From: a virus
UHGV virus genome: UHGV-0190047
Direction: 5' to 3' (one strand)
DNA: 8,162 nucleotides
The translations under genes and the position numbers were made by a program. The notes beneath the pieces are model-generated. The model was not told where the DNA came from, searched no databases, and saw only the letters and a program-made list of their open reading frames with translations. This document shows, piece after piece, positions 375 through 6,619 of this stretch (position 1 is its first letter; each line of letters starts with the position of its first letter).

Positions 375-536
375 ATGATTGATTTATTCAACCTTTTTAT
401 AGATGTGATTCTGTTCCCCATGTCCCCGGATGCCTTTACCCTTGATACGAATATTATGTGGCAGTTCATGCTTTTAATCCTTCTTCCGGTGGGTCTTATC
501 CGCATTGTGAAACAGCTTGTTAAGGGGGTGTTTTAA
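375..536 (+). CDS. small (53 aa) single-pass membrane protein; candidate minor virion or assembly protein
   Basis: Not in the ORF track because it is under 60 aa. ATG at 375 with GAGGTG 6 nt upstream. Hydrophobic core WQFMLLILLPVGLIRIV. Its TAA stop (534-536) overlaps the ATG (536-538) of the downstream Zot-like gene by one nucleotide, suggesting translational coupling. Confidence 0.45.
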   Translation: MIDLFNLFIDVILFPMSPDAFTLDTNIMWQFMLLILLPVGLIRIVKQLVKGVF

Positions 537-1336
537 TGTATGCGTTTTCTGTTCTACTCTTTGGCTTTGGTATGTTTTGGATTGTCTTTTTTGCTTATCA
601 TTTCTTTAAGTATCGCAATCCATATAAGCTCTTTATGGTCTTTGGCAAGAAAGGTAGTGGCAAGACTACGCTCATGTGTAAGATGGCACTTAAATACCGT
701 AAGAAGGGGTGGCACGTCTATAGCAACGTGCATATACCTGGAACTTATCACTTCGATACCGTTGATATTGGTGTTGCCCATTTTCCTGAAAATTCTATCC
801 TGCTTATAGATGAGGTTGGAATGGTTTGGGATAACCGTGATTTTAAGAATTTTAAGACACATACACGTGATTATTTTAAGCTTCAGCGTCATTACCGTAA
901 CATTGTGTATTTGTTTTCCCAGTCGTTTGACGTGGATAAAAAAATCAGGGACTTGACAGACCGGATGTATTTGACTAAAAATTTCTTCAACTGTTTTTCC
1001 CTTGCCCGCAGTATTGATAAAAGGATTACCATTGTACATGCAAATGAAGGCCAGGGTGTTTCCACTTTGGCGGATGATATGGATTTTACTCCCCTTTGGC
1101 TTTTCTGGTGCGGTGCTGTTAAGGTTACATATATTCCTAAGTATGTTAAGTACTTTAATTCTTATGATGTTCCCGCACTGGTTCCTGCTAATTATGATTA
1201 CACCCCCATTCCCTCTGTTCCATCTTTCAGGGAACGTTTTGTTTCCTTCCTCCAGGCGGCTGGCCCGCGCTTGCACCGCAGCGCGGGTGCCGTCAGGAGG
1301 AAGCTTCCCCGGCTCACGATTCGTCGTAAGAAATAA
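536..1336 (+). CDS. Zot / inovirus pI family P-loop NTPase (phage assembly ATPase)
   Basis: Walker A GKKGSGKT (aa 37-44), a SNVH segment, and Walker B ILLIDEVGMVWDNR. This matches the Zot architecture seen in CTXphi Zot (GAPGSYKT ... ITNVRG ... FLFIDECGRIW). A hydrophobic segment FTPLWLFWCGAV after the ATPase domain matches the Zot/pI membrane anchor. GGGGGTG lies 6 nt upstream and the start is coupled to the preceding ORF. An alternative internal start at 635 would remove the N-terminal hydrophobic 33 aa. Confidence 0.8.
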   Translation: MYAFSVLLFGFGMFWIVFFAYHFFKYRNPYKLFMVFGKKGSGKTTLMCKMALKYRKKGWHVYSNVHIPGTYHFDTVDIGVAHFPENSILLIDEVGMVWDNRDFKNFKTHTRDYFKLQRHYRNIVYLFSQSFDVDKKIRDLTDRMYLTKNFFNCFSLARSIDKRITIVHANEGQGVSTLADDMDFTPLWLFWCGAVKVTYIPKYVKYFNSYDVPALVPANYDYTPIPSVPSFRERFVSFLQAAGPRLHRSAGAVRRKLPRLTIRRKK

Positions 1337-1430: not shown

Positions 1431-2351
1431 ATGCTTTACTACTTCAACCCACTCCTTGAGGATGGTATTTTTTACTCCTGTGATTCCCTTCGTTACTCGT
1501 TTGAATTCCCGGATATAGATACAGTGGAATCCTTTCTTACTCTCCTCTCCCATCTGCCCGGCTCCACGTCCTATACATCTTATAAAGATTTTGACTATCG
1601 GTATTTATATGTGTTTGGAATGAAGGGAATGTCATTCAGTATTGGCTGTTGCATGAATGGTGTAAAGAAAGAAACTGTCTTACAGGGTTTCCTGGATTTC
1701 AACCCTAATAAGTTACTTGGAGAGGTTGCTTATGGTGATGGCTTTCTTCGTACCATAGTATCTCCCTTTACCCAGGAGGAAACCTCCTTCTGTGATTTAC
1801 GGGACCAGATAGGCGACATTCTGAGGGATGTATTAGACCAGCTTTTTGTAAGTGTGGAATCTATAAGAATCAAAAGATGGGATTTAGCAGTTGATGTGCC
1901 GTATGGTCGTGATTGTGTACAGTTGATTAAGGATAACCGGAAATACAGCCAGTTTTACAAATCGTCTCAGGATTTCACTGAGTACTTAGGTTCCATGTCC
2001 AGTCCAGGCCGTGTCAAAATTTACAATAAGCAGTTGGAGGCGGAACTTGATTATCCCCTTACTCGGATTGAGGTCACGTTGGATAGTCTGGATTATATAG
2101 ATTGCTGCCGATGCTGGCCCAATGTCTATACTCGTAAAGTGATTGACTTAGCGGAGACAAAGGTCATTGTGCAGTTGCTTGCAGAACAACCTGTTGACAA
2201 AATGGACTATTATCTCCGCCAGATGTCGGCCCCTACGAAACGTAGATACAAGGCCCTGCTTCTGGAACGTCCCTTTGAGGTTGCAGGTCCTGTTTTTAAC
2301 AAGTTGCGGAATCAGTTATTGAGATATCAGGAGGGAAATTTTTATGAGTAA
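1431..2351 (+). CDS. Rep_trans-family rolling-circle replication initiator (gII/RstA analogue)
   Basis: The motif TEYLGSMSSPGRVKIYNKQLEAE......TRIEVTL fits the Rep_trans signature (T.Y.GSR.S...RIYdK..E ... R.E..L) found in pT181 RepC/RepD and CTXphi RstA. WDLAVDV resembles the upstream conserved R.D.A.D block. GGAGGT at 1418-1423 sits 7 nt before ATG 1431. The track's TTG start at 1416 is less likely. Confidence 0.7.
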   Translation: MLYYFNPLLEDGIFYSCDSLRYSFEFPDIDTVESFLTLLSHLPGSTSYTSYKDFDYRYLYVFGMKGMSFSIGCCMNGVKKETVLQGFLDFNPNKLLGEVAYGDGFLRTIVSPFTQEETSFCDLRDQIGDILRDVLDQLFVSVESIRIKRWDLAVDVPYGRDCVQLIKDNRKYSQFYKSSQDFTEYLGSMSSPGRVKIYNKQLEAELDYPLTRIEVTLDSLDYIDCCRCWPNVYTRKVIDLAETKVIVQLLAEQPVDKMDYYLRQMSAPTKRRYKALLLERPFEVAGPVFNKLRNQLLRYQEGNFYE

Positions 2352-2527: not shown

Positions 2528-2617
2528 ATGATATTAAATCTCAAAGTTTTTCTTGTTTTGTTTTTTATTATGATTATACTTCTTATCTATTTTTACTGGC
2601 CACGTGATTATCCGTAA
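2528..2617 (+). CDS. 29-aa hydrophobic peptide (possible small membrane or virion protein)
   Basis: ATG 2528 with GAGGA 7 nt upstream. Sequence MILNLKVFLVLFFIMIILLIYFYWPRDYP. It is the C-terminal part of track ORF 2357..2617, whose N-terminal part overlaps the better-supported 2344 gene in another frame. The size class resembles inovirus g7p/g9p. Its TAA stop lies inside the left inverted repeat of 63-bp element A. Confidence 0.3.
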   Translation: MILNLKVFLVLFFIMIILLIYFYWPRDYP

Positions 2618-2676
2618 CACATAGTCGCGCCGGCTCCGGCCTGGCCAGGAATCACCTGCAGGTGAAAATGTGTTAC
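2614..2676. repeat. 63-bp element A: GTAACACAT ... ATGTGTTAC terminal IRs enclosing three palindromes
   Basis: 9-bp terminal inverted repeats. Internal GCCGG-CT-CCGGC (2629-2640), CCTGGCCAGG (2640-2649) and CACCTGCAGGTG (2653-2664). Lies between the stop of the 2528..2617 gene and the start of 2692. Confidence 0.7.
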
Positions 2677-2691
2677 AGAATGGGGGTAAAT

Positions 2692-3024
2692 ATGAAAGAC
2701 ACAAAGAATAATATCCGTTCCTTCCGCTACTCTGACCGGGTAGCTCAGATATTGGAATCCATGGAAGGCGACAGCTTAAACGCAAAGTTTGAGAATCTGG
2801 TACTCTTCTGTCATGATCGTCTCCCGGAAGTCCAGAAAAAGTATGATATGTATAAGTCCATGGCTGATAGGCAATGGAATGAATTTATGGAATTGTCGGA
2901 TTTGCGGGATGGCATTAAGCGTGATTTAAGGAATGTAGAAAACAAGCTTTGCTCTTTGGATGAGTTGTTGGAATTTACGGAAAGTCGTTGCAAGGCTGTC
3001 ATGGAACATAAAGAGGAATTGTAA
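2692..3024 (+). CDS. RHH-like N-terminal domain plus C-terminal coiled coil; putative transcriptional regulator
   Basis: ATG 2692 preceded by GGGGGT. The track's GTG start at 2662 lies inside repeat element A. IRSFRYS (beta) - DRVAQILESME (helix) - GDS - LNAKFENLVLF (helix) matches the RHH fold pattern, including the G-x-S loop. The C-terminal 60 aa are charged and helical. The gene is bracketed exactly by 63-bp elements A and B, and its TAA stop lies in B's left inverted repeat. Confidence 0.5.
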   Translation: MKDTKNNIRSFRYSDRVAQILESMEGDSLNAKFENLVLFCHDRLPEVQKKYDMYKSMADRQWNEFMELSDLRDGIKRDLRNVENKLCSLDELLEFTESRCKAVMEHKEEL

Positions 3025-3083
3025 CACATGATTGTCCAGGCTCCAGCTGTGATGAGGAACTACCTGGAGGAAATTTGTGTTAC
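3021..3083. repeat. 63-bp element B (GTAACACA ... TGTGTTAC)
   Basis: Same length and termini as A. Shares GGCTCC at positions 19-24 and an ACCTGGAGG internal inverted repeat. Begins at the TAA stop of the 2692..3024 gene. Confidence 0.7.
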
Positions 3084-3095
3084 ATAGATAAAGAT

Positions 3096-3125
3096 ATCCC
3101 CGGCATAGCGCCGGGGATTTTATTG
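3096..3125. terminator. bidirectional rho-independent terminator between convergent genes
   Basis: Stem ATCCCCGGC / GCCGGGGAT (9 bp, 5-nt loop) followed by TTTTATTG on the + strand and TCTTTATCTA on the - strand. Located between the 2692..3024 (+) and 3126..3359 (-) genes. Confidence 0.6.
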
Positions 3126-3359
3126 TTAGAGTGCTTTTGGCAATATGCCTTTTGCTTCCAGGACTTCCACTATTGTTTCGATATCTTGTCTAGTTTCCCG
3201 GAATCCTTTTCTCATTTCGTATTCTAAATTTGTGATACGATTATCTAGGTTGCTTATGCGGTTGTCCATATTACTGAGACGATTGTCCAGGTTCGTAAGT
3301 TTTAAATTAATCGGTTCCAGCATTTGTCTCATTGCTTCTAAAATCTCTGTGTCTGTCAT
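3126..3359 (-). CDS. coiled-coil protein with tandem 7-aa repeats (LTNLDNR/LSNMDNR/ISNLDNR/ITNLEYE)
   Basis: Strong SD AAGGAGGA 8 nt upstream of the ATG on the - strand (revcomp of 3360-3375). Heptad repeats are encoded by three imperfect 21-bp DNA repeats at about 3222-3300. Convergent with the 2692..3024 gene across a bidirectional terminator. Function unknown. Confidence 0.6.
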   Translation of the reverse strand: MTDTEILEAMRQMLEPINLKLTNLDNRLSNMDNRISNLDNRITNLEYEMRKGFRETRQDIETIVEVLEAKGILPKAL

Positions 3360-3435
3360 TTTACTGTCCTCCTTGATATTCTTCTTACATCATATCATTA
3401 AAATTCGTTCTCGTCCATCCTGGTGCGTTGTAGAC

Positions 3436-3684
3436 CTATTTCATGCTGATATCTCCATGTATGGTCCCGGCTACTATGCCTTTGTTGGTTTTCACTTGGA
3501 TTCCTGGTGTGCCATTCATGTCTTTTTCTATTAATGCTATCATGTAGGCTGCAAAGGATTTATAGCCACTTTGTTTCCAATGGTTTTCTATGATTTCTTT
3601 TTGACCTTTTGCTACTCTGAACCTTAATTCTTCATATTTTTCTTTGTTATATTCGTTGTTGTATTTTACTTTATCATATGCCAT
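3436..3684 (-). CDS. ribbon-helix-helix family DNA-binding protein; candidate phage repressor
   Basis: LRFRVAKGQKEIIENHWKQSGYKSFAAYMIALIEKDM matches the beta-alpha-(G.S)-alpha RHH pattern typical of CopG/Arc/MobC-like proteins. Start MAYDK at 3684 has AAAGGAAA 10 nt upstream. The longer track ORF (to 3840) reads through the operator repeats and is probably not coding. It sits upstream of, and is likely co-transcribed with, the coiled-coil gene. Confidence 0.65.
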   Translation of the reverse strand: MAYDKVKYNNEYNKEKYEELRFRVAKGQKEIIENHWKQSGYKSFAAYMIALIEKDMNGTPGIQVKTNKGIVAGTIHGDISMK

Positions 3685-3707
3685 TTTGATTAGTTTCCTT
3701 TCGCTAG

Positions 3708-3785
3708 ACATGTGCGCATGTGAAAAATAACTAATAACATGTGCGCATGTTTGTATGTTTTGTATATGTACACATGCGCACATGT
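3708..3785. promoter_or_regulatory. operator array: three copies of ACATGTGCGCATGT (two direct, one inverted) in the divergent control region
   Basis: Copies at 3708-3721, 3738-3751 and, inverted as ACATGCGCACATGT, 3772-3785. Centre-to-centre spacing is 30 and 34 bp, roughly three helical turns. Immediately upstream of the - strand RHH gene, overlapping the + strand promoter region. Confidence 0.5.
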
Positions 3786-3786
3786 T

Positions 3787-3795
3787 TGATATAAT
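3787..3795 (+). promoter_or_regulatory. extended -10 promoter element TGATATAAT for the rightward operon
   Basis: TGnTATAAT match abutting operator copy 3. A roughly 100-nt leader follows before the SD at 3889. Confidence 0.35.
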
Positions 3796-3826
3796 ATTAG
3801 TGTAAGGATAAGTCATGATTAAGCGC

Positions 3827-3883
3827 TTAGTTAGTATCATTTTAACACAAATTTAGTTAGTCTACAAGGATGATTTAGTTAGT
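3827..3883 (+). repeat. three direct copies of TTAGTTAGT in the 5' leader of the 3904 operon (a fourth copy at 4554-4562 upstream of the g5p-like gene)
   Basis: Exact 9-mers at 3827-3835, 3853-3861, 3875-3883 and 4554-4562. The last copy in each location lies 6-12 nt 5' of the SD. Confidence 0.5.
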
Positions 3884-3903
3884 TGGTTAAGGAGGGTTTT
3901 GTT

Positions 3904-4107
3904 ATGACAGTTGAACAGATTTTAGCATTGCCGATTATTAAAGATGATACACATATTTTTATTCGTACCGAAGCGTTTGAGCTTCGCGCTTGCTTAACCC
4001 GTTTACATCCACAAATATTGCGTTGGTATCCTTATGATGTAATGGCATTTTCCTGGGATGATGATAACCAGGTTTATATTACCATATATTCGGGGGTGCA
4101 ACTATGA
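3904..4107 (+). CDS. hypothetical 67-aa protein, first gene of rightward operon
   Basis: SD AAGGAGGG at 3889-3896, 7 nt before ATG 3904. The track start at 3883 is probably too long. No recognisable motif. Confidence 0.55.
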   Translation: MTVEQILALPIIKDDTHIFIRTEAFELRACLTRLHPQILRWYPYDVMAFSWDDDNQVYITIYSGVQL

Positions 4108-4343
4108 TGGATAAAAAGCGTATCCGTGAAACACTTAATGATGCTGTAGAACGGTATCTTCTTGGTGATGTTGATGGTGATTTCCGTTTTAACTATATTT
4201 GGCTTACTGCCCAACTGAGTTTTGCATGTACCATTGATGCAATTACTTTTGAAGAGCGTGATACTTTGCGCAGGGTTGTCACTCACGCTTATAAAACTAA
4301 CAGGAGGGGTCCAGAATGCGTAGACTTTCCAAGGCTCTCTTAG
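4104..4343 (+). CDS. hypothetical 79-aa protein
   Basis: ATGA start/stop overlap with the previous gene. GGGGGTG 5 nt upstream. No recognisable motif. Confidence 0.55.
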   Translation: MMDKKRIRETLNDAVERYLLGDVDGDFRFNYIWLTAQLSFACTIDAITFEERDTLRRVVTHAYKTNRRGPECVDFPRLS

Positions 4344-4495
4344 AGCAGGAACAAAATGAAACCAGCGTGGCAATCTGTCGTGCCATGGCTATGCATGACC
4401 AGTGCAGGGTGGATGTATTACAGTATCATTTTTCCCGCCTGGAGCTTATCTTGGCCTATATCAATGAAAAGGCCGATGATATTCCGTCAATTTAG
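4316..4495 (+). CDS. hypothetical 59-aa protein
   Basis: Not in the track. ATG 4316 with strong SD AGGAGGGG at 4302-4309. Overlaps the 3' end of the 4104..4343 gene by 28 nt in another frame. Stop TAG at 4493-4495. Confidence 0.4.
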   Translation: MRRLSKALLEQEQNETSVAICRAMAMHDQCRVDVLQYHFSRLELILAYINEKADDIPSI

Positions 4496-4582
4496 TGTGT
4501 TTCTCTAGGGTATCCCCTGCGGCTCTGCCCTGGGTTGCAATATAACAATCAAATTAGTTAGTTAAGAAAGAGAGGATTTATT

Positions 4583-4843
4583 ATGGTATATCAGATTTTA
4601 GGAATTGAGAGATTTGAAGGCATTTCAAAGAAAACAGGAAAACCCTATGATTTCACCCGCTTTTATGCGGTTCCTTCCCGGCACTCTGATAAAGTTCGCG
4701 GCATCCGTGTTGAAAATGTAGATATCTGGAATGGTGAATATGCCCCGGATATTTCCGGTATTCATCCAGATGATTTTGTGGATATTTCCTATGGCCGTGG
4801 CGGTTTTGTCGAAGAATGCCGGGTAGTGGACTCTCCGAAGTAG
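4583..4843 (+). CDS. g5p-like ssDNA-binding protein (inovirus gene V analogue)
   Basis: 86 aa, against 87 aa for M13 g5p. KKTGKPYDFTRFYAV parallels M13 g5p SRQGKPYSLNEQLCYV. The C-terminal DISYGRGGFVEECRVV loosely parallels SFKVGQFGSLMIDRLRLV. SD AGAGGA 6 nt upstream. Followed by a structured GC-rich intergenic region. Confidence 0.55.
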   Translation: MVYQILGIERFEGISKKTGKPYDFTRFYAVPSRHSDKVRGIRVENVDIWNGEYAPDISGIHPDDFVDISYGRGGFVEECRVVDSPK

Positions 4844-4854
4844 TGGATGCACAA

Positions 4855-4890
4855 ACTCCCGGCCCCCGGTATTACCTAGGGGCCGGGAGT
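4855..4890. promoter_or_regulatory. 12-bp GC-rich stem hairpin (ACTCCCGGCCCC / GGGGCCGGGAGT) downstream of the g5p-like gene
   Basis: Perfect stem with a 12-nt loop. The local GC content is much higher than the surrounding sequence. A second weaker hairpin (CTGCTCC / GGAGCAG) lies at 4919-4969. Confidence 0.4.
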
Positions 4891-4983
4891 ACTCCTTTAC
4901 CTTGACTGCAAGAAGCGCCTGCTCCCTAACGGTCGCGAACCATCATGCCTGGATGAGCCTGCGGAGCAGCGAACATAAGAAAT

Positions 4984-5046
4984 GTAACACCTAGAGGTTG
5001 CAGCTCCGTCCGGGCCAGGGATTTACTGAAGCTAAAAATGTGTTAC
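4984..5046. repeat. 63-bp element C (GTAACACC ... ATGTGTTAC)
   Basis: Same length and termini. Shares GCTCC and GCCAGG blocks and the A-run before the right inverted repeat. Lies 23 bp upstream of the 5070 gene. A lone TGTAACA half-site occurs at 5277-5283 at the 3' end of that gene. Confidence 0.7.
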
Positions 5047-5069
5047 AAACTTTAAAGGTTGGTGACAAG

Positions 5070-5288
5070 ATGCATATAGAACTTACAGAACGAGAATTGC
5101 GGTATCTTAACCGGGTGGTAAATGTCCGCTTGGATGAATTGCTTGAGCGTTGTGCCCGGATTCGCCGGATTCGCTCTCTTGAGGATATTGACACCAGTGA
5201 GCGTTTTAGTCTGGCTGAGTCTGAAATCAAGGTTATGAAAGAGGTCCATGATAAAATCGCGGATGCCCTGTCCGATTGTAACATATAA
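5070..5288 (+). CDS. small (72 aa) helical protein, possibly RHH-like regulator
   Basis: ATG 5070 preceded by AAAGGTTGGTGA. The track start at 4998 lies inside 63-bp element C. The N-terminus MHIELTERELRYLNRVVN has the alternating-hydrophobic strand then helix pattern of RHH proteins but lacks the Gly loop, so the assignment is weak. The C-terminal codons overlap a TGTAACA half-site. Confidence 0.4.
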   Translation: MHIELTERELRYLNRVVNVRLDELLERCARIRRIRSLEDIDTSERFSLAESEIKVMKEVHDKIADALSDCNI

Positions 5289-5293
5289 CAAGC

Positions 5294-5386
5294 TGTATCC
5301 TTATATACTTAATAAAATAAAGCAACTATTCCTGATAAGTCTAGTTTAACGAATAGTTAAGGCTGATTTAAGTATATAAGGATACA
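5294..5386. promoter_or_regulatory. 93-nt nested stem-loop: 19-bp outer stem plus 8-bp inner stem; candidate ssDNA origin, packaging signal or promoter
   Basis: Outer arms TGTATCCTTATATACTTAA (5294-5312) and TTAAGTATATAAGGATACA (5368-5386) are perfectly complementary. Inner arms AACTATTC (5324-5331) and GAATAGTT (5351-5358) are perfect. The right arm contains a TATATAAG -10-like sequence 37 nt upstream of the pIII-like gene. Confidence 0.5.
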
Positions 5387-5422
5387 TCTTTTAACACTTT
5401 TGTTAGGGGGTGTATTTTTTTT

Positions 5423-6619
5423 ATGGTTAAGAAGTTTTTAAGTGCCCTGTTGGCGCTTTTTATCCTTTCGTTATTTCCCCTGACTGTTTTGGCCGGGGAC
5501 CTTCCTACATCTACCAATACGATTAACTGGTCAACGGTTGAAGTTTTTGCTTATGGTTCTGGAACCTATAAGAAATCCCTTGGTAAGGTTCAGGAGGCTG
5601 GCGGGCAAGGTGCTTTTGGTAAGGAATTTACTCCTTCTGACGGTATGGGCATTCAAGGTTTTGTTTTGGTTCTTCCCCGCTCCTCTTTTCCGACAACTGG
5701 CAAGTGGAAGGCTCAGGTTTCCATCCAGACAAGTAGCACTTCATTATTACTTGATAGGATGTATGCCCGTGGCCGTGTTAAAAGACCTAACGCTTCGGAT
5801 TTATCCGGCCAGCTTCCGAAGATTGCTTCGGATACCATCCCCCCTGACTTCTATACGGTTACATATAACGTGAATAGCCAGTCCCTCACCTCGGTTGAGT
5901 TCTTTTTCCCTTATGCGTTTCCTCTTTATGGTACGCAGAAACTTAATTTTTCCTCGGTCATTTCCTTCCGGGATTATGAATCCGGTAACATTAACAATCC
6001 GGTTGCCCCTCTTCCGGATGCATCGGAACAAAATCAGGCAATTGCCAATTCGGTCCAGGATACGGCTAACAATACGGCGGCTTTGGTGCAGAAACAGGAT
6101 ACCATCATTGACCAGATTGTGGATACCACTCAGACTATCAGTAACCAGCTCCATTCCTTTTGGGACCAACTGGCGGGTGAGTTCACGAACATGTATAACA
6201 AAATGAATCAACATCATTCTGAGGATTTGGCCGCAAACCGGCGCAATACAGAGGATATCATTGATTCCCAGGAATCCAATACCACGAATATCATTAACAA
6301 TAATAATGCAAATACGGATAAACTTGCAAATGGTTATGATAAATCCCGTCTGGATAACAGCAATGCTCAGTTGAATGATTCGATTCACAATATGCAGGAA
6401 AATGAAAAACAGTTAATGGAGGATGTAAGCAATAACATTAATTCGTTCCGTTATGATGATTATTTTACCCGTATTAGGGGGCCTTTATCGGATATATCCT
6501 ATTTCCTGAATCATATTTACAATAACATGAAGGGCTTGAATATCCCTATTGGCTTTTCCCTTACTCTCACGATTGCCATGCTCTGCATTGGCTATTATCG
6601 GTTCAAAGGGGGGACATAA
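5423..6619 (+). CDS. pIII-like minor coat / adsorption protein candidate
   Basis: 398 aa. N-terminal signal peptide MVKKFLSALLALFILSLFPLTVLA with G-D cleavage context. Central N/Q/T-rich low-complexity, coiled-coil-like region. C-terminal membrane anchor IPIGFSLTLTIAMLCIGYY plus RFKGG. This signal peptide / variable N-domain / C-terminal anchor architecture is that of inovirus g3p. GGGGGTG upstream. Confidence 0.5.
   Translation: MVKKFLSALLALFILSLFPLTVLAGDLPTSTNTINWSTVEVFAYGSGTYKKSLGKVQEAGGQGAFGKEFTPSDGMGIQGFVLVLPRSSFPTTGKWKAQVSIQTSSTSLLLDRMYARGRVKRPNASDLSGQLPKIASDTIPPDFYTVTYNVNSQSLTSVEFFFPYAFPLYGTQKLNFSSVISFRDYESGNINNPVAPLPDASEQNQAIANSVQDTANNTAALVQKQDTIIDQIVDTTQTISNQLHSFWDQLAGEFTNMYNKMNQHHSEDLAANRRNTEDIIDSQESNTTNIINNNNANTDKLANGYDKSRLDNSNAQLNDSIHNMQENEKQLMEDVSNNINSFRYDDYFTRIRGPLSDISYFLNHIYNNMKGLNIPIGFSLTLTIAMLCIGYYRFKGGT

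Follow-up and report, generated by a model that had tools for sequence, protein, structure and literature searches.

Length-quantised, inverted-repeat-bounded DNA elements of gut filamentous phages as candidate binding sites for an adjacent ribbon-helix-helix-like protein

The virus genome UHGV-0190047, an 8,162-nucleotide stretch of DNA analysed here as a whole (the window), is that of an inovirus (filamentous phage) and carries three elements of 63 bp, named A, B, and C, each of which begins with GTAACAC, ends with the inverted heptamer GTGTTAC, and adjoins a small gene (Table 1). A search for GTAACAC-N{40,60}-GTGTTAC returned exactly three matches in the window, each with an N49 interior, and none in 200 dinucleotide-preserving shuffles of it, which confirms the three copies reported in the original prediction, a reading of the letters made without database searches. 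The heptamer GTAACAC occurs six times on the two strands against 0.65 expected, and all six occurrences lie within the elements. Ungapped alignment gave identities of 47/63 for A and C, 36/63 for A and B, and 35/63 for B and C, so that the 60–70% identity first proposed is slightly too high for B. The shared GCTCC at positions 20–24 and the blocks GCCGGCTCCGGC, CCTGGCCAGG, and CACCTGCAGGTG of A are all present as claimed, and the interior boxes of A comprise GCTCC (20–24), GGCC at the centre (31.5), and CTGCAG. At position 8, element C has C where A is usual.

The placement of the elements on gene boundaries was likewise upheld. Element A stops 15 nt short of the start codon (ATG) at 2692, B starts at the end of the same gene, and 23 nt separate C from the ATG at 5070. 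The 2692 gene terminates on a TAA (3022–3024) that forms positions 2–4 of B, which begins one base earlier, and the TAA of the left arm (G-TAA-CAC) doubles in the same manner as the stop codon of the open reading frame (ORF) ending at 2617 (TAA 2615–2617). Because a bidirectional intrinsic terminator sits 12 nt after B, this element is transcribed as a 3′ untranslated region and is not itself the terminator. The lone TGTAACA noted near the end of the 5070 gene is present, and a degenerate-element scan found no partner arm for it at 42, 52, 53, or 63 bp; its membership of the family is therefore doubtful. Two human-gut metagenome contigs (L159 and L160) are 99.8% identical to the window. Orthologues of A in L004, L068, and L159–L166 keep both arms and length, and orthologues of C are found in L004, L159, L161, L162, L165, and L166, whereas the relative L056 lacks A. 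In L004, B is 52 bp long through a single 11-bp deletion, with 40–48 bp of flank identical on each side. The homologue of the 5070 gene in the phage L001 also has an element 25 nt upstream, as judged by tblastn and the ORF map.

Elements A, B, and C belong to a large and apparently undescribed family of sharply bounded DNA elements, at least 223 in number, carried by filamentous phages that infect Firmicutes of the gut; full-text literature searches on the arm sequences and related terms found no description of it. An arm-pattern scan of IMG/VR and of one genome per species, followed by a search for further copies in the recovered loci, gave 223 distinct perfect-arm copies in 102 inovirus or prophage loci. 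The hosts are almost all Oscillospiraceae and Lachnospiraceae, and the elements lie in small viral contigs or prophages. The host genomes scanned held one or two loci each, with no copies elsewhere in their chromosomes, which makes the elements part of the phages and not of the host chromosome. A phage genome holds two to eight copies, in either orientation and about 56–75% identical to one another, and the six of a Marasmitruncus massiliensis prophage (L038) are distributed between modules. The arms take the inverted form (T)GTAACACA...TGTGTTAC(A), of 8–9 bp, and enclose an interior of variable sequence. Positions 1–7 were imposed by the search pattern; next to them, T occupies position 0 in 72% of arms and A occupies position 8 in 95%, no conservation extends beyond, and the boundary is sharp, at T0/G1. 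Interiors have a G+C content of 59%, against 46% outside, and draw on a small vocabulary of motifs (GCWGC, AGCT, GATC, CCGG, and CTGCAG). The central tetranucleotide (positions 30–33) is GGCC in the lineage of the window (2644–2647 in A and 5014–5017 in C), and both GATC and GGCC are common methylation or restriction motifs. A sister family has the arms GTATCTCA...TGAGATAC and lengths of 62 and 51/52 bp, and in one phage both gene-flanking elements carry the uncompensated arms GTAACAC...GTGTGAC. At 43% of arms the reading frame that ends on the arm TAA extends upstream for 40 or more codons without a stop, compared with 20–24% in the other two frames. Relative to the gene that lies upstream, the elements show no preferred orientation (32 versus 22 in the 63-bp class and 18 versus 14 in the 52-bp class), and by crude ORF calls of the flanking genes a depletion of elements between divergent genes is not clear.

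Element length proved to be quantised. Because the first scans had fixed it at 63 bp, lengths were taken from two length-independent samples, namely by-catch copies in loci fetched for another copy and 55 metagenome loci found via the 2692 protein alone. By-catch copies measured 52 bp (58 copies) or 53 bp (18 copies), with singles at 40, 42, 49, 66, and 121 bp, of which the 40- and 66-bp pairs both come from L014 and are probably a chance hit. Perfect-arm elements of the protein-first loci were 39 (1), 42 (2), 52 (13), 53 (32), 63 (29), and 64 bp (2) long, and no intermediate lengths occurred. The main length classes of 42, 52.5, and 63 bp are thus 4, 5, and 6 times 10.5 bp. A lattice of the same pitch runs through the 63-bp class, where GCWGC is centred at 21 in 48 of 93 copies, GATC at 31.5 in 64, and GCWGC at 43 in 33, and where A of the window has GCTCC, GGCC, and CTGCAG at the corresponding places. 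Fourier analysis of AT content gave a weak periodicity at 10.5 bp, the lattice being visible in the positions of the motif centres. Length steps of ∼10.5 bp combined with a free interior are what a constraint on the rotational phase of duplex B-DNA predicts, and both the lengths and the box centres have the helical-repeat spacing expected of operator or centromere subsites of ribbon-helix-helix (RHH) proteins.

When the window proteins were used in tblastn searches, the product of the 2692 gene was the one that travels with the elements. Its sequence suggests a domain of RHH pattern (strand, helix, G-x-S/T/N loop, helix) joined to a coiled coil. In an alignment of 31 homologues the N-terminal 45 residues are near-invariant (KNNIRSFRYSD-VAxILE-EGDSLN-AKFENLVL), and the tail is variable and helical. 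The AlphaFold2 monomer model, with a mean pLDDT of 89, places helices at residues 15–23 and 29–109 on either side of a G-x-S loop (G26-D-S28), the C-terminal helix forming a coiled coil of ∼80 residues. The protein had no match on plasmids, and its sole annotated relative is labelled hypothetical. Linkage between gene and element is close across the protein-first loci, with an element no more than 150 bp from the gene in 53 of 55, 8–33 bp upstream of the ATG in 35, and sharing its arm TAA with the stop codon of the gene in 33; an element directly after the gene, as in the case of B, is the arrangement conserved throughout the family. In the complete genome of Dulem virus 51 (PP511381, L214) the gene is directly followed by a tandem pair of elements, 52 and 62 bp long, which are the only ones present, and at one metagenome locus four units, one of 63 bp and three of 52 bp, form an array after the gene.

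Protein and arms also vary together. The N-terminal strand NIRS[FIV]R[YFL]S is paired with GTAACACA arms at more than 40 loci, [AML]KS[VI]R.. with GTATCTC(A/G) arms at ∼12 loci, and HQKSLRMS with GTAACCCA arms at one locus, with zero exceptions. The Zot proteins of element-bearing phages are only 27–50% identical, and a recognition pair kept across such divergent phages argues for a core function, not for a fast-evolving immunity specificity.

Given the whole-turn lengths and the adjacent gene of DNA-binding type, the elements are most likely protein-binding sites and not recombination or replication hairpins. On balance, the 63-bp units are probably bound in double-stranded form by the 2692–3024 protein, in a regulatory or architectural role. 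Each inverted arm of 8–9 bp would be read by one N-terminal RHH-like dimer, and arms exactly 4, 5, or 6 turns apart would hold the two bound heads in a fixed rotational register. Further dimers might occupy the interior boxes, ∼10.5 bp apart, and bound dimers could be bridged or polymerised via the long C-terminal coiled coil, the resulting nucleoprotein complex being clamped on gene boundaries of the replicative form or the prophage. The likeliest job of such a complex would be to gate transcription between gene blocks, including autoregulation of the gene between A and B; A would gate the gene of the protein itself, and C the passage from the early operon to the 5070 gene and the structural genes. 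Alternatively, it may organise or segregate the replicon, as omega, ParR, and CopG coat phased sites. Of the earlier suggestion that the elements are operators for the RHH proteins of both the 2692 and the 3436 genes, the first part finds support in adjacency and in the co-variation of arm and strand, and the second does not hold, the 3436 gene having a triple operator of its own, ACATGTGCGCATGT.

Known RHH systems offer partial parallels. The omega repressor (inc18, pSM19035) is a small RHH protein that binds 7-bp heptads in direct or inverted arrangement and acts both as a global regulator and in centromere binding. The present system shares with it a small protein, here RHH-like, 7-bp units, and several site clusters per small replicon with the regulator gene beside one of them. 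In contrast to omega sites, the arms are non-contiguous, paired at 4, 5, or 6 turns, and located at gene ends instead of promoters; the protein has a coiled coil of ∼80 residues and no detected sequence similarity to omega, and no ParA-type partner is encoded. CopG (pMV158) and ParR on parC bind as RHH dimers, cooperatively and on one helix face over several turns. The helical-repeat periodicity is common to these systems and, here, to element length and box lattice, although CopG and ParR/parC act at a single promoter or centromere locus and the phages carry two to eight bounded units with invariant outer arms and free interiors.

Several observations weigh against the binding-site interpretation. 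The invariance of the arms is partly by construction, as they served as the search pattern. No promoter was detected in or beside A, B, or C in a promoter scan, so that a classical operator role is not evident; the same scan did not bear out the proposal that the elements are promoter modules and did not flag the extended −10 sequence proposed for the right arm of C. The N-terminal domain has no sequence match in Pfam, PHROG, or the PDB; an hhalign comparison with a profile built from four sequences (Arc, Mnt, CopG, and omega) gave the expected register at E = 0.065 with a probability below 1%, and the AlphaFold2 monomer model shows no N-terminal strand. The protein is called RHH-like here because no library recognises the domain and the profile comparison is not significant. 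The co-variation amounts to two or three independent switches and could follow phage lineage, and five element-bearing contigs (L009, L011, L012, L018, and L019), which may be incomplete, show no homologue of the protein. Finally, the GC-rich interiors, with their many short palindromes and a mean folding z of −1.13 in the 63-bp class, leave room for a hairpin component.

That component was assessed by folding the elements with arms kept and interiors shuffled. The mean interior z was −0.8 over all copies and −0.38 in the 52-bp class, and 20% of all copies fell below −1.64. As whole elements compared with shuffled sequence, A (z = −3.75) and B (z = −2.8) fold better, and in C the terminal stem is essentially all there is. 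Across 100 copies no register of pairing was prominent, the 19 predicted pairs were all without compensatory change in nine A-type orthologues, and Rfam at E ≤ 10 gave no match over A or C, the only overlap with B being a sub-threshold chance match to 5.8S rRNA (3017–3136, 20.7 bits against a gathering threshold of 42). The structured single-stranded form envisaged in the original prediction is thus left with weak interior self-complementarity and no compensatory covariation. The single whole-site hairpin of an integron attC was rejected on the mean z over all copies and in the 52-bp class, the lack of a common register, and the uncompensated pairs.

It is nevertheless conceivable, though rather unlikely, that the elements act as folded single strands, with the arms as a 9-bp stem, either as hairpins of priming or packaging type on the (+) single-stranded DNA (ssDNA) or as REP-like stem-loops at mRNA 3′ ends and between cistrons. 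The replicon is that of an ssDNA phage, the arms are perfect inverted repeats of which both are switched together between arm families, the folding of A, B, and the 63-bp class points the same way, and the elements lie at gene ends, often with a stop codon in the arm, and are transcribed as REP elements are. A loop, however, needs no strict length steps of 10–11 bp with a free interior; in folding, the 52/53-bp classes are on a par with shuffled sequence, and the absence of covariation and of an Rfam match, the existence of unpaired arm variants, the bare terminal stem of C, and the random orientation relative to the coding strand all speak against it. REP/BIME and similar intergenic palindromic repeats have in common with the elements that they are short palindromic units at gene 3′ ends, within operons, and between convergent genes, and that they are transcribed; the present elements differ in being confined to phages, conserved only at their ends, strict in length, and associated with an RHH-like gene instead of a RAYT transposase. 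Most improbable is the idea that Rep uses the elements as origins or termination signals of rolling-circle replication, perhaps yielding a mini-circle between A and B. The original prediction had suggested origin or termination hairpins for the Rep_trans nickase and a mini-circle of roughly 409 nt. Hairpin-capable repeats in a rolling-circle replicon, with A downstream of the rep operon, would suit such a role, yet the same arms occur both with Rep_trans (the Marasmitruncus prophage L038 and Dulem virus 51) and with an HUH Rep, REP_ORF2-G2P (L001), and because these Rep families are unrelated the elements are not Rep-specific origins. Two to eight copies per genome in either orientation also argue against an origin, and conserved arms around a variable centre are the opposite of a nick-site hairpin, in which the loop is conserved.

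Recombination sites bounding exchangeable cassettes, attC- or Xer-like and with the RHH-like protein as a possible accessory factor, are an improbable alternative for which the comparison of relatives provides part of the case. The earlier expectation that the bracketed genes would be variable is supported in part, by indels exactly at element edges: in a three-way alignment ORF 2528–2617 is an insertion relative to L068, from TAA to TAA at the left edge of A, the 2344 gene stopping in L068 on the arm TAA used here by that ORF; A is missing from L056; and in L162 and L163 additional genes for small membrane proteins lie between B and the terminator. Moreover, an element 86% identical to A adjoins a different gene in L001, and elements are often near attP, the phage attachment site (Dulem virus 51 and the Marasmitruncus prophage). 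The outer repeats of attC sites are R″ = RYYYAAC and R′ = GTTRRRY. The elements resemble attC in size (attC being about 57–141 bp), imperfect inverted repeats, TAAC...GTTA cores, a variable centre, and a position directly after an ORF with the stop codon often inside the left repeat. They differ in that the arms fail the attC core, as was originally recognised, each breaking the consensus at one position throughout the 223 copies (the left, (N)TGTAAC, has G for Y, and the right, GTTACA(N), has C for R), and in having no integron integrase, no consistent interior self-complementarity, free orientation, and quantised lengths. An attC system with fixed orientation and a nearby IntI was rejected on the orientation counts of the 63-bp class and on domain searches, which found no integrase domain among the window ORFs. 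The attP of the phage lies elsewhere. Comparison of the circular window with two integrated relatives (L215 and L216) showed that in these the circle is broken at a point between the first structural gene and the 5070 gene and that what both junctions share is AACTATTC-N19-GAATAGTT, corresponding to window 5324–5358, and not the elements, contrary to what a Xer/dif-type site or an attP would show. The likening of the elements to attC or to the attP of CTXφ as folded ssDNA sites finds no support, given this location, the folding results, the variable orientation, and the mismatch of the arms to the attC core. The inserted segments are not flanked by elements on both sides, and the main mosaic breakpoints between the window and L004 (∼809, ∼3899–4103, and ∼5359) are off the elements. 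A related proposal, also of low probability, is that the arms are synapsis points of an integrase-free cassette exchange in which the RHH-coiled-coil protein would bridge co-resident inovirus genomes, such as are found as tandem prophages, and host recombination or template switching at the 9-bp arms would swap, insert, or delete the genes between; this would account for the indels at element edges and for near-identical elements beside unrelated genes. Selfish units resembling miniature inverted-repeat transposable elements, perhaps mobilised by IS30-like transposases, are very unlikely. The terminal inverted repeats, the several copies per genome, and the occurrence of elements around the transposase genes of L019, L018, and L009 would fit them, but copies within a genome are highly diverged, none occurs elsewhere in the host chromosomes scanned, the window carries no transposase, and element length is under selection. 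Target-site duplications were sought as flanking direct repeats (k = 2 to 8), which were no commoner than in partner-shuffled controls.

The transposases just mentioned are of IS30 type (HTH_38 + rve) and lie at 5923–6921 in L019, 5085–6083 in L018, and 23–1051 in L009, where no RHH-like homologue was detected. Three further functions were considered for the elements and rejected, the first of them for the window. As promoters, the 63-bp class would offer a central TTGATC as −35, a fitting 17-bp spacer, and an A-rich −10 beside the arm, but the hexamers are weak, the window copies lack the −35, and the promoter scan is negative. All three window elements are open in frame 1 for 21 codons; a coding role was discarded because that frame is lost in the 52/53-bp classes and genes lying upstream end within the arm. 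The scan for intrinsic terminators flags the site past B and none of the elements. A restriction decoy is suggested by interiors rich in GATC, GCWGC, and CTGCAG; GATC is not depleted outside the elements.

The remaining features of the window are listed in Table 1. Named homologues of its proteins come from Enterocloster, and a megablast of the whole window against GenBank phages matched nothing. Between the divergent repressor-like gene and the rightward operon are three copies of ACATGTGCGCATGT, ACATG(T/C)GC(G/A)CATGT, at 3708–3788, which overlap the best sigma-70-like promoter (3767–3795); this region is probably the lysogeny switch and distinct from the 63-bp elements. The 67-amino acid gene is missing from L004, which is otherwise 92–96% identical, with a clean junction and no element there. 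GC-rich hairpins, CTCCCGGCCCC...GGGGCCGGGAG and GACTTCGGACC...GGTCCGAAGTC, lie at 4857–4893, past the ssDNA-binding protein gene, and at 1328–1387, ahead of rep, and are candidates for terminator or origin structures.

Table 1. Positions of the elements and other features in the window
Feature	Position	Strand	Remarks
Zot-type ATPase gene	536–1336		
Rep gene	1431–2351		Weak Rep_trans match only
Small hydrophobic ORF, 29 amino acids	2528–2617	+	TAA stop inside left arm of A; upstream start variant 2357–2617
Element A, 63 bp	2614–2676	None	Arms GTAACACA / TGTGTTAC; exact pattern match
RHH-like + coiled-coil protein gene, 110 amino acids	2692–3024	+	Proposed arm-binding partner
Element B, 63 bp	3021–3083	None	Between stop of 2692 gene and intrinsic terminator
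Bidirectional intrinsic terminator	3096–3118		12 nt past B; terminator scan; strong
Repressor-like gene, divergent	3436–3687	−	Own ACATGTGCGCATGT operators and best promoter match beside it
67-amino acid gene	3904–4107		Missing from relative L004
RstB-like ssDNA-binding protein gene	4583–4843		
Element C, 63 bp	4984–5046	None	23 nt upstream of 5070 gene
72-amino acid gene	5070–5288	+	Directly downstream of C; tblastn, ORF map
Lone TGTAACA half-site	5277–5283		End of 5070 gene; pattern search

The attP is located in the loop of a hairpin (5290–5390) whose arms, 5290–5312 and 5368–5390, are 96% complementary. An attP placed in a hairpin, in a phage that lacks an integrase, brings to mind integration of the CTXφ type, in which ssDNA is integrated by a host recombinase; the attP of CTXφ is a dif mimic formed by folded ssDNA. 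The phage shares with CTXφ its filamentous nature, a Rep_trans-type Rep, an RstB-like ssDNA-binding protein, a divergent repressor, and the hairpin-embedded attP, and this attP is a feature distinct from the 63-bp elements. In L215 two different inovirus prophages (4697–12724 and 13224–19295) occupy one chromosomal site in tandem, as in arrays of the CTX/RS1 type. In two unrelated hosts the integrated inovirus has a tyrosine recombinase gene immediately beyond its right end (8498–9550 in L216 and from ∼7306 in L038), and in Marasmitruncus massiliensis the 70-bp direct repeat flanking the prophage is the region directly upstream of that gene. In Dulem virus 51, positions 5173–5229, after the tandem elements, read on the minus strand as the 3′ end of a tRNA (T-arm, ...CACCA) and are presumably the attP of the adjacent tyrosine integrase.

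Filamentous phages that infect Gram-positive anaerobes of the gut have hardly been studied. The module described here is a concrete protein-DNA pair conserved from Lachnospiraceae to Oscillospiraceae phages, and its arms provide a simple sequence marker for inoviruses that are otherwise hard to detect in gut metagenomes. The natural spacing series of 4, 5, and 6 turns, together with at least three matched protein-arm pairs, comes near to a ready-made experiment on phase-dependent bridging, and the same pairs are suited to studying how RHH-type recognition specificity evolves. Were the exchange of cassettes at the arms true, these phages would be modular gene shufflers comparable to integrons; if, as the binding-site interpretation would have it, read-through from one gene block into the next is gated at the elements, a small genome would have in them a compact form of punctuation.

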